Part shown: one piece after another, positions 7,728 through 12,099 of the stretch
How the letters are laid out: each line of letters starts with the position of its first letter
Position numbering within the stretch: the stretch's first letter is position 1
NCBI GenBank assembly: GCA_029259775.1
Contig: JAJDEN010000056.1
Coordinates: 8,917 to 72,916 of the forward strand
Length of the DNA stretch: 64,000 bases
Reading direction: 5' to 3'
Source: Planctomycetota bacterium
GTDB taxonomy: Bacteria; Planctomycetota; PLA2; JAEUHO01
Notes under the pieces: model-generated
What the model was told of the DNA's origin: nothing
Seen by the model: only the letters and a program-made list of their open reading frames with translations
Databases searched by the model: none
Position numbers and translations under genes: made by a program

Positions 7728-8057
7728 CTATGCCGTGAAGGACGTGCCGCAGCCGCACGTGCCTGTGGCCTTCGGGTTGCTGAACGCGAAGCCAGAGCCC
7801 ATGAGCGACTCGTGATAGTCGATCTGGGTGCCGTCGATGAAGAGCGCGGACTTGGCGTCGACGAAGACCGTGATGCCCTCCGACTCGATGACACTGTCGG
7901 TCTCGGCCGCGGCGCGCTCCAGCGCGATCTGGTAGCTGAGGCCGGAGCATCCTCCTCCGACGACCTTCACGCGCAGGCCCGTGGCCTCGGTCTGCTCGGG
8001 CTGGGCCATCAGGTCCTTGACCTTGGTAGCGGCGGCGGGTGTGAGGGTGATCGACAT
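7728..8057 (-). CDS. HesB/IscA/ErpA family iron-sulfur cluster assembly protein
   Basis: LRVKVVGGGCSGLSY and C-terminal CGCGTSF. Start at MSITLT. Confidence 0.95.
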   Translation of the reverse strand: MSITLTPAAATKVKDLMAQPEQTEATGLRVKVVGGGCSGLSYQIALERAAAETDSVIESEGITVFVDAKSALFIDGTQIDYHESLMGSGFAFSNPKATGTCGCGTSFTA

Positions 8058-8154
8058 GGGCAACTCCAGGCGAAATCGTCTGCTTCGGAGCAGGGCCCCC
8101 ATCCTACCCCGTGCCGCTGGGAGAGCCGCGTTCATGCGGAGGTAGACTCCCAGC

Positions 8155-10485
8155 ATGCGCTTCTTCGCTGCCGTCGCCATCGCGGCCATCGCCGCCATCC
8201 TCCTGCTGGTGGCGGTCCGCCCTCCGAACGACGACCCCGTGCCGGACCAGGTCCCGCCGAGGAGCACCAGGGACGCCTACCTGAGCGAGGAGGGGCGCCG
8301 CGTGCTCTTCGACATCGAGCGGGCCGATCTCCTGCTCGGACGCGCGCTCGAGCCGGTCAGCGCGGCCATCCGGGCGGGCCACGAGGCTCCCTTGCGCGCC
8401 GCCCTGGGCCCTGGGTTCGCGGGCCGCCTGCCGCCGCTGCCCGGCCCGGCGGACTGGACCGCCGAGGGCAGCTTCCGCTGGACGCACCTCAGCGAGCCGG
8501 CCGAGGTCGACACGGCCGGCCTGCTCGCCTGGCTCGGGCGCATGCGCGGCCGCTTCGCGAAGCTCGAGGTCGTCGCGTTCGGACGCAAGAAGAACAGCGC
8601 GACGGTCCTGAAAGGCCCCGACGTCGCCGCCCGCAGCGAGGGGTTGATCCGGCTGGCGGGCCAGGCAAAGGACGGCGGCAGGCTCGAGATCGCCGGCCGG
8701 TTCGTGCTCGGCCACGACGGGCTGGGTACCTACGACGGCACGCAACCCCTCGCGGGCTGGATTCGCGGACTCGAGCTGCACGCGATGACCGCGGTCCACA
8801 GCCACCGCGCGCTCTTCGAGGAGACGACCGCCGCGTCGGGCATCAACGTGCTCGAGCTGCACGACACCTGGAAGGCCGGCGACGGCGGCCGCGTCATGCA
8901 ACCCGGCGGTGTGTACCTGGGCGACGTCGACGGCGACGGCGTCACGGATCTCATCGTCACGGACGAGGGTCGGCGCACCCCCCTCTACCTGGGTCGCGGC
9001 AATGGCACCTTCCGCAAGAGCGCGTGGCGAGGCCCCAAGGCGGCGGAGCGCACCGAGGTCGCGATCTTCGACGCCACGGGCGATGGACGTGTTGACGTGT
9101 TGCTCGGTGGCGAGCTCCTGACGTGGAACGCCGCGACGGAGATGCTCGAACCGGTGCCCGGAGCGACACGCCTACCCAACGGGGGCGCGTGTGTCGCGGA
9201 CTACGATGCGGACGGGCGGCTCGACGTCTACCTCGTGGACGTGGGCAAGCGCTACACGGGACCTCGCTCCAAGGCCTTCTTCGACGACGAACGCATCACC
9301 GGCCGGCGGAACCTGCTGTTTCGAGGTCTTGGCGGCGGGCGCTTCGAGGACGTCACCGATCGGATGAACGCGTCGGGCGCGTTTGGACGTACGTTCGCCG
9401 CGGTGTGGCTCCACGCCAACGACGACGACCGACCGGACCTCTTCTGTGCGAACGAGTTCGGCCGCAACGCCTTTCTCGTAAGCCAGCCGGACGGGACGTT
9501 CGCCGACATGCCGGAGATCGACCACGAGTTCGGTGGGTTCTCGATGGGCGTGGCCGCGGGCGACATCGACGGCGACCTCAAGACGGACCTCTACGTCTCG
9601 AACATGTACTCCAAGGCCGGCCACCGGATCTACCACCACCTCGACCTGGCCGTGTACCCCGAGAACGTGCGCAAGATGTTCATGGCCTCGGTCGCGGGCA
9701 ACCGCTACTACCGCGCCCGCGGCGACCTGACCTTCGAAGAACGCGGTGGCGTCGCGGGGATCAACGCCGTGGGCTGGGGCTGGTCCGGCGCGCTGGCCGA
9801 CTTCGATCTCGACGGACGGCTGGATGTGTACGCGCCGTGCGGGCACACATCAGTCGACCGCGACAAGCCCGACGGGTGAGGCTGCGTGTGGCAGGCTGTG
9901 GCTGTGCAGCCGTTCGACATCTCCCGCAAGCACAAGGCGCCGCGCAGGCCCGACGGCACCCTGGATGAGTTCTGGCTCGAGAACCCGTTCGACTTCGAGA
10001 ACACGGGCGGCTTCAACCTCTCGCGTTTCGAGCGCAACCGCATGTTCTTCAACCTGGGCGACGGCGGCTTTCGCGAGGTCTCCTTCCTGAGCGGGACGGA
10101 CATCGACTCCGACACGCGCGGCGTGGCGATTGGCGACCTCGACGACGACGCGCGCCCCGACATGATCGTGCGCAACGTCGGCGGCGGGCCCGTGAGGGTG
10201 TTCCGCAACGCGATGGAGGGCCGAGGCGTGCGCGTGCGATTGCGAGGCACGGCCTCGAACAAGCAAGGCATCGGCGCCCGCCTCTGGCTCACGCAGGGGG
10301 ACCGCACCACCTACCGCGAGCACTTCCCCCAGAACACGCTCAACGCGCAGCACGCGACGGAGTCGATCTTCGCGATCCTCGCCGGCAAGGGAGCCGCCAG
10401 CATGCGGATCCGCTGGCCTTCGGGACACGAGCAGACGCTGCAGGACGTGCAGCCGGGCCTGCTCGAGGTGACCGAAGCGAAGTGA
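8155..10485 (+). CDS. Secreted FG-GAP repeat / ASPIC-UnbV (CRTAC1-like) protein with in-frame TGA at 9877-9879; predicted selenoprotein (776 aa, U575)
   Basis: ORFs 8155-9879 and 9886-10485 share a frame and read ...DKPDG-TGA-GCVWQAV. FG-GAP repeats (GDVDGDGVTDL, ADFDLDGRLDVY, GDLDDDARPD) occur on both sides of the TGA. The ASPIC/UnbV tail (SNKQGIGAR...IRWPSG) lies downstream. A hairpin follows the TGA. Confidence 0.78.
9894..9911 (+). promoter_or_regulatory. Putative bacterial SECIS hairpin of the ASPIC/UnbV gene
   Basis: GGCTGTG-GCTG-TGCAGCC: 7-bp stem with two G-U pairs; G-initial loop 21 nt after the TGA. Confidence 0.5.
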
Positions 10486-10494
10486 GCGCCTGGA

Positions 10495-11472
10495 TCAGAC
10501 CCGCCGGGCGTCCTCGATCAGGTTGATGTCGTACAGCACCTCGTCCAGCCAGTCGCCGGCCTGGATCGCGCCCTCCCGCTGAGGATGCCGCTCATCGATG
10601 CAGCAATCGAGCGGCGAGAGGATCGTCCACGGCGTGGGGTGGCAGAACTGCACGACCGAGTAGCGCTCGTCGGTCTCGCCGGCGGCGGCGATGACGCGAT
10701 GGATGCCCGTGGGAATCCGACCGTTCGTCAGGCGCTCGAGCATGAGACCGGTGTTGATGATCGCCATGCCCTCGGGCGGGACCGCATCGACCCACACGCC
10801 GTCGACCCTCACTTGCAGACCGCGTTGGGTCGCGCGCGGCAGCGCGGTGATGAGGTTGATGTCGCCGTGCTCCCCGGCCCAGATGTGGTCCTTGGCCGGG
10901 GCCTCCTGCATGGGCGGATAGCGGATGGCGCGCGTGAGTGTCGGCCCGTTCGCGAGCATGCCCTCGAAGAAGCCAGGATGCGCGCCGATGCCCGACGCGA
11001 TGATGCGCAGGAAGCGCTGCTGCAGATCGAACAGGCTCTCGTGGAGCCGGAGGAGTGCGTCTTCGATGCCGGGGACGGAGGCCTCGGGCAGGACGCGCGG
11101 CATGTAGCGATGCGGAAAGCGCCGTTGGAGCGGGTGCCCGACGGGCACGTCGGGACCCCAGTTCAGCATCTCCTTCCAGTCGGGCGTGGCGTTGACGGCC
11201 GCCGTCTCGACGAGCAGGCCTGTGTAGCCCGTCTGGCCCATCGAGCCTTCGACCACGAACTGGTCCTTCTCCTCGCGCGGCTTGTGGAAGAAGGTCGCGA
11301 GCAGATCGTAGGCCCGGTCGATCACCTCCGAGGGGATGTCGTGGGCGCAGTAGACGAAGCCGGTCCTCAGGCTGCGGGTGACGCCGTCGATGACCGCGCG
11401 CCGCTCGTCCGCGATCCCCTGCTCGAAGCGTAGGAGATCCACGGCCAGGATGTCACTCGAGCTGATCGTCAT
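10495..11472 (-). CDS. 2-oxoglutarate/Fe(II)-dependent oxygenase, isopenicillin N synthase family
   Basis: HxD (EHGDINL), distal His (IHRV), RxS (RYS), GLQV and DWKE motifs. Confidence 0.92.
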   Translation of the reverse strand: MTISSSDILAVDLLRFEQGIADERRAVIDGVTRSLRTGFVYCAHDIPSEVIDRAYDLLATFFHKPREEKDQFVVEGSMGQTGYTGLLVETAAVNATPDWKEMLNWGPDVPVGHPLQRRFPHRYMPRVLPEASVPGIEDALLRLHESLFDLQQRFLRIIASGIGAHPGFFEGMLANGPTLTRAIRYPPMQEAPAKDHIWAGEHGDINLITALPRATQRGLQVRVDGVWVDAVPPEGMAIINTGLMLERLTNGRIPTGIHRVIAAAGETDERYSVVQFCHPTPWTILSPLDCCIDERHPQREGAIQAGDWLDEVLYDINLIEDARRV

Positions 11473-11652: not shown

Positions 11653-12099
11653 CTAGCCGCCGGGGCCGTCGGCGAGGATGTACTGCTCTAGAGACGCCAT
11701 GTGGCCTTCGAGACGCTCAACGCGGTTGGTCAGGAGGTTGCGAATCGAGACCATGCCGATGGCCTTGCCGGCCTCGTCGACGATCGGCAGGTGCCGGAAG
11801 TGCTTCGTGAGCATGATCTCGAGGGCCTCAGCGCGTCGCGCGGCGGGCGTGATGCTCACGGGCTTGCGGACCATCACTTGTTCGACAGGCGTCGTGGCCG
11901 GGTCAAGGTCCTCGCCAACGACGCGCAGCATGAGGTCGCGTTCCGTGAAGATGCCGACGAGCTGATCACCATCGTTCACCGCGACGGCGCCCACACGGGC
12001 GGCTCGCATCACATCCACGGCGTGCCGCACGGTGGCGGTGGTTTCCACGGACGCGGGGGGGGAATCGGCGATCTTCATCAGCGCTTCAGGCATATGCAC
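11653..12099 (-). CDS. CBS-domain pair protein
   Basis: LVGIFTERDL, FRHLPIVD, GMVSIRNL; upstream GAGGAG RBS. Confidence 0.92.
   Translation of the reverse strand: MHMPEALMKIADSPPASVETTATVRHAVDVMRAARVGAVAVNDGDQLVGIFTERDLMLRVVGEDLDPATTPVEQVMVRKPVSITPAARRAEALEIMLTKHFRHLPIVDEAGKAIGMVSIRNLLTNRVERLEGHMASLEQYILADGPGG

Follow-up and report, generated by a model that had tools for sequence, protein, structure and literature searches.

The stretch of planctomycete DNA analysed here (the window, 64,000 nt in full) carries on its forward strand, at 8155-10485, what we regard with good confidence as one gene for an exported β-propeller selenoprotein of the FG-GAP/UnbV_ASPIC type, 776 aa long, in which selenocysteine (Sec) would act as a thiol-coupled redox residue. 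An open reading frame (ORF) starting with ATG at 8155..9879 (574 aa) ends at a TGA codon (9877-9879), and the frame onward is open as far as a second TGA at 10483-10485. With the first TGA read as U, translation of 8155-10485 yields 776 residues, U being residue 575, in the immediate context YAPCGHTSVDRDKPDG-U-GCVWQAVAV (motif P-D-G-U-G-C-V-W) and, more widely, ...DFDLDGRLDVYAPCGHTSVDRDKPDG-U-GCVWQAVAVQPFD... Translation also bore out the layout described in an earlier sequence-only reading of the same DNA, namely a single in-frame TGA in a 776-aa frame, with one cysteine (C562) 13 residues before U575 and another (C577) two residues after it. The features of the locus are as follows:

8138..8142, + strand: Shine-Dalgarno-like motif GGAGG, 12 nt upstream of the ATG, read from the sequence
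8155..10485, + strand: whole candidate selenoprotein gene, 776 codons including the putative Sec codon plus the terminal TGA stop; a single genome-search match covering residues 1-776 with 1 internal TGA
8155..8220, + strand: predicted N-terminal hydrophobic signal or anchor (MRFFAAVAIAAIAAILLLVAVR), from the sequence and from homologues with similar N-termini, lipobox or Tat-like signals
8923..10224, + strand: FG-GAP/VCBS β-propeller, residues ~257-690, broken by the Sec-bearing insertion (Pfam; CRTAC1 structure 9etn_A)
9877..9879, + strand: UGA probably read as selenocysteine, U575 (column conservation and Sec machinery in the genome)
9883..9885, + strand: Cys577 (TGC), proposed partner of Sec in U-G-C (Cys at +2 in 30/30 Sec forms of the clade and 12/12 soil relatives)
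9894..9911, + strand: candidate selenocysteine insertion sequence (SECIS) hairpin, 9894-9899 pairing with 9906-9911, loop GGCUGU at 9900-9905 (covariation and published model of the bacterial SECIS, bSECIS)
10267..10455, + strand: UnbV_ASPIC domain (PF07593), residues 705-767, Pfam E 2.3e-07, 31 bits against a cut-off of 23.4, reachable by read-through only
10483..10485, + strand: true stop codon TGA, from the sequence; a terminal TGA is common in homologous read-through frames

The protein has the FG-GAP/ASPIC architecture, that is, FG-GAP-type repeats above the Pfam cut-offs (FG-GAP_3 over four stretches, E 8e-37, 126.1 bits, cut-off 26.9; FG-GAP over one stretch, E 2e-08, 34.4 bits, cut-off 22.1) followed by PF07593. 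The UnbV_ASPIC domain lies solely downstream of the internal TGA, so that neither half of the frame is a complete protein, as the sequence-only reading had held. Residue 575 opens a conserved segment, D-x-U-x-x-x-W-[RQ]-x-V-V, and this segment belongs to a long insertion that separates two strands of FG-GAP blade six. Export of the protein is suggested by its N-terminus together with the signals of its homologues.

The TGA codon, the selenocysteine machinery and the downstream hairpin

When 41 related genomes were searched in six frames, 12 of them yielded a total of 14 matches; exactly one in-frame TGA was present in 13 of the 14, and in all 13 it aligned to U575. A species-level scan (one genome per species, with an alignment of 6 sequences as query) returned 80 loci, of which 65 have TGA at this column, the rest having Glu (12), Met (2) or Ile (1). 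The hosts are metagenome-assembled genomes (MAGs) of Planctomycetota, Verrucomicrobiota, Acidobacteriota and Myxococcota, with a few oddly labelled bins. Soil metagenomes searched with a Cys-form query added 12 loci covering the site, all 12 with TGA at the column. TGA-bearing homologues share 27-58% identity with the query, and the occurrence of TGA at one column in dozens of such diverged sequences is more than chance would produce. Moreover, the stop at the column was TGA in every one of the 90 interrupted loci examined (13 + 65 + 12), never TAA or TAG. Beyond the TGA, 71 of 72 loci have 158 or more codons before the next stop, a part that carries the UnbV_ASPIC domain, and the read-through frames of 39 of 67 homologues themselves terminate in TGA, which indicates that this codon has not been reassigned.

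A few Sec forms were located on oddly labelled MAG contigs, i.e. L043 (Verrucomicrobiota), L045 (Alcaligenaceae), L071 (Akkermansia muciniphila) and L107 (Spirochaetaceae). In a phylogenetic tree (described below), L043 and L045 fall within a mostly planctomycete clade, L071 groups with verrucomicrobial sequences, and L107 is placed next to one from Myxococcota. Some of the four labels, at least, may be due to mis-binning or mislabelling and not name the true hosts.

A lone in-frame stop in an otherwise intact gene resembles a recent nonsense mutation, and the source genome is a 66-contig draft that is 92.5% complete; the TGA might then mark a pseudogene or be an error of sequencing or assembly. 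In four runs, all from a single study that may itself be the source sample, contigs cover 9600-10200 at a depth of 11-43 with 0 differences, and to that extent these contigs support the TGA, which the sequence-only reading had proposed to confirm in reads. Furthermore, the same codon occurs at the same column in four phyla, and the part downstream of the TGA is conserved as protein. This conservation across genomes refutes in practice the idea of a mutation or error, which we consider extremely improbable.

The consequences for annotation are visible in public predictions. When residues 400-777 were used as a query in a protein search, 2277 matches were obtained, and half of the best 120 (60) are predicted proteins 470-639 aa in length whose alignment takes in only 43-46% of the query region. 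Such coverage means that those 60 predictions stop at the Sec site; all 17 truncated sequences taken end in ...[KR]PDG. Their public names are 'hypothetical protein', 'VCBS repeat-containing protein' and 'FG-GAP-like repeat-containing protein'. The expectation that pipelines would split such a gene in two was thus well founded.

The source genome encodes the complete set of Sec components, i.e. tRNA-Sec, SelA, SelB and SelD. The tRNA-Sec has a score of 70.7 bits (gathering score 47) and is called by ARAGORN as tRNA-SeC with anticodon tca; SelA scores 430.9 bits; and the SelB wing domain was found inside a 664-aa frame. The selD gene adjoins selA on the minus strand of another contig (C57:29656-31772; L009, L011) and has one in-frame TGA of its own, so that SelD is a second selenoprotein of this organism.

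Co-occurrence was examined in an even sample of 301 genomes of the window's phylum, with a homologue threshold of E 1e-25 and the top three candidates per genome scored. A homologue was present in 67 of the 301 genomes, and an in-frame TGA, counted irrespective of its column, was present in 106 of 120 matches. SelA was detected in all 60 genomes with a TGA-bearing homologue (60/301), one of them, G259, with a weak match (E 2.5e-11), against 170 of the 241 others, i.e. in 230 of the 301 genomes overall. Among genomes with Glu or Met forms, SelA was present in five of six. The Sec machinery is therefore uninformative as a discriminator between Sec and Glu forms, and the non-Sec forms cannot simply be adaptations to loss of the machinery.

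Several genomes, for example G149, G216 and G278, each gave three TGA-bearing matches, which is the maximum scored, and one species-scan locus, L091, contains a second TGA-bearing copy (L091:323-370). Extra in-frame stops were seen in a few homologues, with 3 TGA in G065:C78:23876-25702, 1 TGA and 1 TAG in G152:C55, and 1 TGA and 1 TAA in G272:C376. These may be pseudogenes, genes with a second Sec, or alignments running past the gene end.

The hairpin that the sequence-only reading had noticed after the TGA proved to be real. In the window it pairs G9894-U9899 with G9906-C9911 (6 bp) around a 6-nt loop with G as its first nucleotide, has a predicted energy of -9.7 kcal/mol, and its loop begins 20 nt after the UGA. 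It conforms to the published bSECIS model, which calls for a stem of 4-16 bp, an apical loop of 3-9 nt, a G in the first two loop positions, a position 16-37 nt from the UGA and an energy of -7.5 kcal/mol or lower (PMC13188914). In the homologue set (72 TGA sequences, 71 unique), the hairpin lies 17-20 nt downstream of the UGA, and when the stem is required to be strictly contiguous, the model's five tests are all passed by 66 of the 71 unique hairpins, the 5 failures being due to an internal mismatch. Numbering the U of UGA as 1, three registers accommodate all 72 sequences:

R1, which includes the window: 17/18-23 with 30-35/36, 6-nt loop CGUGNC or GGCUGY, 30 sequences
R2a: 14-20 with 26-32, loop mostly GGUCG, 29 sequences
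R2b: 15-20 with 25-30, loop GGUC, 12 sequences

In gapless alignments, 90.5% of the cells are paired in R1 (covariation score 0.294 against a shuffle mean of 0.169) and 89.2% in R2a (0.303 against 0.130), and none of 500 shuffles reached the observed score in either register. Compensatory changes include pair 21-32 (UA in 24 and CG in 5 sequences), pair 23-30 (UA in 14, CG in 10, UG in 6) and pair 18-28 (CG in 16, GU in 7, GC in 4, AU in 2). When codons were shuffled synonymously so as to preserve the peptide, the mean z was -1.13 for the 71 Sec sequences, 15 of them individually at <=0.05, and -0.12 for 16 non-Sec homologues, none of which reached that level. The rarity of GCT suspected by the sequence-only reading was also found: GCT accounts for only 4 of the 85 Ala codons in the gene, and 2 of the 4 (9895 and 9901) fall within the hairpin. 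As a side observation, the Glu homologue L025 (G039:C83) has a 6-bp hairpin, CUGGCG...CGCCAG, at the SECIS position of the Sec forms; this may be left over from an earlier Sec codon, or be chance in GC-rich DNA.

The conserved TGA column, the SECIS-like hairpin with its compensatory changes and the presence and co-occurrence of the Sec machinery (selA, selB, selC and selD in the source genome) together argue that the TGA at 9877-9879 is very probably a selenocysteine codon, as first proposed from the window alone. The UGA would be decoded as Sec by the organism's own SelB/tRNA-Sec system, guided by the hairpin at 9894-9911 inside the coding sequence.

The same data bear on the alternative that the TGA is a genuine stop, giving a 574-aa truncated propeller with or without a separate 199-aa C-terminal protein started at the GTG at 9886. 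That GTG lies 3 codons after the TGA in the window gene, an in-frame GTG occurs at codon 8 after the TGA in 55 of 72 homologues, and one is found within 8 codons in 70 of 72; the lack of an obvious ribosome-binding site downstream, which the sequence-only reading had taken as an argument for read-through, is thus unusable as such. Gene callers do predict both pieces, the C-terminal one, ~140-210 aa long, being represented by P0146, P0195, P0256 and P0260. Because Sec is as a rule inserted with low efficiency, some truncated product would be expected in any case. Against a genuine stop, the break splits a single FG-GAP blade and leaves UnbV_ASPIC on a fragment with no signal sequence, about 36 non-Sec homologues cross the column as one protein, a stop that is TGA in 90 of 90 cases shows no substitution by TAA or TAG, the TGA forms occur in SelA-positive genomes only (60/60), and a SECIS-type hairpin with compensatory changes follows the codon. 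We therefore regard a genuine stop as very improbable.

Residues replacing selenocysteine, nearby thiols and the fused thioredoxin-like domain

The approximately 36 non-Sec homologues that run through the column have Glu, Asp, Ala, Ser, Met, Asn, Gly, Ile, Val, Leu or, in one case, Cys. The sole Cys form, P0248 (PDG-C-N-C), is a 197-aa singleton known solely from a protein-level soil assembly, and its closest relatives at the DNA level all have U-N-C. The sequence-only reading had looked to homologues for a conserved TGA or for Cys at this position; the first was found, and of the second there is the one example, replacements being mostly Glu, Asp, Ser, Ala and similar residues. Under the refuting condition set by that reading, non-Cys replacements would count against Sec only if the TGA were not conserved, and since it is conserved they leave the Sec reading in place.

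In a quick maximum-likelihood tree of 95 sequences (unrooted; one row, L101_L, is wrongly labelled and is a Sec form), U is found in every major clade and the non-Sec states are nested within. For example, an 11-member Glu clade lies inside the verrucomicrobial Sec forms, and an acidobacterial clade with M, N, S, G, A and E is sister to a 27-member, mostly Sec clade. This suggests that Sec is ancestral and was probably lost several times.

Cysteines near the site were surveyed in an alignment of the 72 Sec forms and 23 non-Sec rows. Of the 72 Sec forms, 30 have a Cys at +2 (U-x-C), namely all 30 Sec forms of the window's clade, and so do 12 of 12 soil relatives; a Cys at +5 (U-x4-C) occurs in 4 of the 72, corresponding to all 4 members of another short clade; and 22 of the 72 have a Cys in a '...S-G-x-E-R-N-C' segment about 50 residues downstream of Sec. 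None of the 23 non-Sec rows of the alignment has Cys at the +2, +5 or 'ERNC' columns; some more distant non-Sec forms retain the +2 Cys. C562 is conserved in the closest clade only, so the C...U-x-C triad that the sequence-only reading had emphasized does not hold as a family feature. An Asp two residues before Sec (D573) is invariant.

A second arrangement of thiols is found in the long forms of the family (1000-1250 aa). These end in a thioredoxin-fold domain of the AhpC-TSA/Redoxin type, to which TPR repeats may be added (Pfam); the domain is separate from the propeller and carries Cys-x-x-Cys rather than Sec; the short forms, including the window protein, are without this fused domain. Among 54 long-tail proteins, the WCxxC motif of the fused domain is intact in all 36 Sec forms versus 2 of the 18 non-Sec forms, in the other 16 of which it has decayed to SPSA, SIQY, NIPY, VADC, APQC, AHPH and the like. 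The two exceptions, the verrucomicrobial Glu forms L057 and L063, are the only non-Sec long forms with an intact CxxC (CHPC and CPSC) and look like snapshots of decay after Sec loss. Altogether, 70 of the 72 Sec forms have a vicinal Cys or else a WCxxC domain fused to them; one of the others, L102, is cut by a contig end.

The invariance of U-x-C in short-form clades and the association of Sec with WCxxC in long forms lead us to favour, with moderate confidence, a redox function of Sec that is coupled to thiols. In the window protein and the other short forms, Sec would cycle with Cys577 (U-G-C) via a selenenylsulfide, whereas in the long forms it would be reduced by the C-terminally fused TlpA-like thioredoxin-fold domain with its WCxxC. 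An extracytoplasmic location would fit both the N-terminal signals, lipoboxes and Tat-like motifs of the homologues and the TlpA-like partner. The extracytoplasmic redox selenoprotein that had been postulated from the window sequence thus gains support from its relatives; Sec insertion, export, selenenylsulfide chemistry and any catalytic activity are nevertheless all predictions from sequence.

Alternatively, the TGA may encode Sec whose selenolate serves as a metal ligand, or as another group outside thiol redox chemistry, on the propeller face, any link to thiols being secondary. Sec would then have a carboxylate-like role, as Glu or Asp would in the non-Sec homologues. FG-GAP repeats are Ca-binding modules, and in Mo-bisPGD (molybdenum bis-pyranopterin guanine dinucleotide) enzymes the metal-ligand position varies among Sec, Cys, Ser and Asp, which provides a precedent for a variable ligand. 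Consistent with such a role, Glu and Asp are the commonest replacements (Glu in 12 of the 15 non-TGA species-scan loci and in L025; Asp or Glu in 6 of 13 site-spanning proteins, with Asp in P0020), Cys at the column was seen only once, and the invariant D573 lies two residues away. Ala, Gly, Val, Leu and Ile at the same column could not ligate a metal, however, and suggest a position that is tolerant once Sec has been lost, and both the WCxxC pattern (intact in 36/36 Sec long forms, decayed in 16/18 non-Sec ones) and the invariant U-x-C of the short forms point to thiol chemistry. We consider a metal-ligand role unlikely, and the metal-binding option left open by the sequence-only reading is less well supported than the redox one.

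Returning to the interpretation of 8155-10485 as a thiol-coupled selenoprotein gene, several observations weigh against it. SelA is common in the phylum and the genomes are related, i.e. not independent, so that 60 out of 60 overstates the support; this co-occurrence is a refutation test that was passed rather than strong positive proof. Regarding the hairpin, each sequence was put in the register that fitted it best, a choice that favours high pair counts, and only the 15 of 71 Sec sequences mentioned above individually beat 95% of their synonymous shuffles. Furthermore, the 91 nt after the TGA are not unusually stable (minimum free energy -33.3 against a shuffle mean of -40.5, z +1.99; 196 of 200 shuffles fold at least as well), for which reason regional RNA stability was dropped as an argument and the SECIS case rests on conservation and covariation. 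Redox selenoproteins do not typically show such a near absence of Cys among non-Sec homologues, and the Sec form L069 lacks both a Cys close to the site and the fused domain. Finally, the association between Sec and CxxC reduces to three independent losses of Sec, with CxxC decaying each time (sign test p = 0.25), and is kept here as a qualitative observation.

More broadly, we would give somewhat better than even chances to the view that these proteins form a large, uncatalogued family of extracytoplasmic β-propeller selenoenzymes spread over four phyla, often with at least three paralogues per genome, in which a catalytic lone Sec on a propeller insertion is recycled by either a vicinal Cys or a fused WCxxC. 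If true, this would place a redox-active Sec for the first time outside the customary thioredoxin-like or metallocofactor folds and would represent a new periplasmic selenium-dependent activity, and lineages giving up Sec would afterwards have allowed their partner CxxC to decay. The naturally occurring variants, Sec versus Glu and intact versus decayed CxxC, offer built-in controls.

Known systems and surroundings of the gene

The closest known architecture is that of the CRTAC1/ASPIC/UnbV family, in which FG-GAP/VCBS repeats are likewise followed by UnbV_ASPIC (PF07593). CRTAC1 is secreted, as the window protein is predicted to be. The family profile matches the human CRTAC1 structure 9etn_A with E 1.2e-30 over query residues 242-462 and 657-765. 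The structure leaves query residues 470-656 unaligned, which is the stretch with the Sec-bearing insertion, so the attempt to map Sec onto it failed. In contrast to CRTAC1, the window protein also has an additional domain at its N-terminus, about 200 aa in length and assigned to no family, and its long-form relatives add the thioredoxin-like domain, with or without TPR repeats. To our knowledge, neither selenocysteine nor a catalytic role has been described for CRTAC1. No Pfam family was matched by residues 1-250 of the window protein. The N-terminal domain (residues 35-235, 8257-8859) is kept among homologues, with a motif ...LFD[LI]ERADLLLGRAL..., and in the Atlas it was found in unnamed Verrucomicrobiota clusters only.

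The glutathione peroxidase-type selenoenzymes resemble the window family in having a single Sec before a conserved Trp-containing segment and in a resolving thiol whose position varies by clade (here the vicinal Cys, the 'ERNC' Cys or the fused CxxC). Unlike them, the window family has no UxxT motif, and there is no sequence or fold relationship; peroxidase activity of the family would be pure conjecture. Neisseria PilB (Trx-MsrA-MsrB) is a periplasmic enzyme recycled by a fused TlpA/thioredoxin-like domain. The long forms similarly fuse a domain with one redox-active chalcogen residue to a WCxxC domain of the AhpC-TSA/Redoxin type, and would likewise be exported, whereas their catalytic domain would be a β-propeller, and the window protein, lacking a fused domain, has a vicinal Cys instead.

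Among catalogued selenoproteins, the nearest in motif are the UGC/UxC types, i.e. DUF1573 'UGC', the UGC-containing TlpA-like reductase, thioredoxin-like Sec.2 'UxC' and SO_0444 'UxC' (PMC13188914, Table 1). The window protein shares with them a Sec and a Cys one residue apart (U-G-C), a bacterial-type SECIS directly downstream inside the ORF, and a predicted extracytoplasmic or redox-linked role, and differs in fold and family, its Sec being in a propeller insertion and not in a thioredoxin fold. Nor does it match the class of thioredoxin-fold selenoproteins (Trx, Prx, TlpA-like, DsbA-like): its Sec lies outside any thioredoxin-fold CxxC-type motif, and Pfam gave no thioredoxin-fold match for the window protein.

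A review of May 2026 describes its Table 1, which covers 119 families and subfamilies of prokaryotic selenoproteins, as the most comprehensive inventory (PMC13188914), and among these 119 there is no PF13517, PF01839 or PF07593 and no FG-GAP, VCBS, UnbV or CRTAC1 entry. FG-GAP, VCBS, ASPIC and propeller are unmentioned in the text of PMC13188914, PMC12013277, PMC13326102, PMC2398784 and PMC5029168, and FG-GAP, ASPIC and VCBS are unmentioned in that of PMC4807772, whose supplementary table S9 of planctomycete candidates could hold a member. Literature searches linking selenocysteine with UnbV, ASPIC or VCBS found nothing, and those for selenoprotein and FG-GAP found unrelated papers only; the window protein (P0001) had 0 matches in NCBIfam at E 0.01 or better. 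Published catalogues thus do not list a β-propeller selenoprotein family, while supplementary tables could list a member.

The mechanism in question would be ordinary bacterial Sec recoding, in a protein family that is not known to use Sec and that is widespread, often multi-copy and systematically mis-annotated. If confirmed, it would add a widespread selenoprotein family (60 of the 301 phylum-sample genomes) that is currently split in two by annotation. The family sits in phyla whose selenium use is under-counted, and it would raise estimates of selenoproteome size in PVC (Planctomycetes-Verrucomicrobia-Chlamydiae) bacteria and soil Acidobacteria. Selenoprotein searches built on Sec/Cys pairs would miss it, because its non-Sec members almost never carry Cys. 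Moreover, the enigmatic FG-GAP/ASPIC (CRTAC1-like) proteins would gain candidates for an active site and for a domain acting as redox partner.

The genes flanking the candidate selenoprotein gene are all on the opposite strand, so that it stands alone. On one side is a HesB/IscA-type Fe-S cluster biosynthesis protein in its Cys form (7728-8267, - strand), and on the other a DIOX_N/2OG-Fe(II) oxygenase (10495-11472, - strand) and a tandem-CBS protein (11653-12099, - strand). None of these flanking genes of the window has an evident functional link to the selenoprotein gene, and the neighbourhoods of the 80 loci revealed no conserved partner gene, their only recurrent neighbour being another FG-GAP/ASPIC paralogue, present in 20 of the 80.

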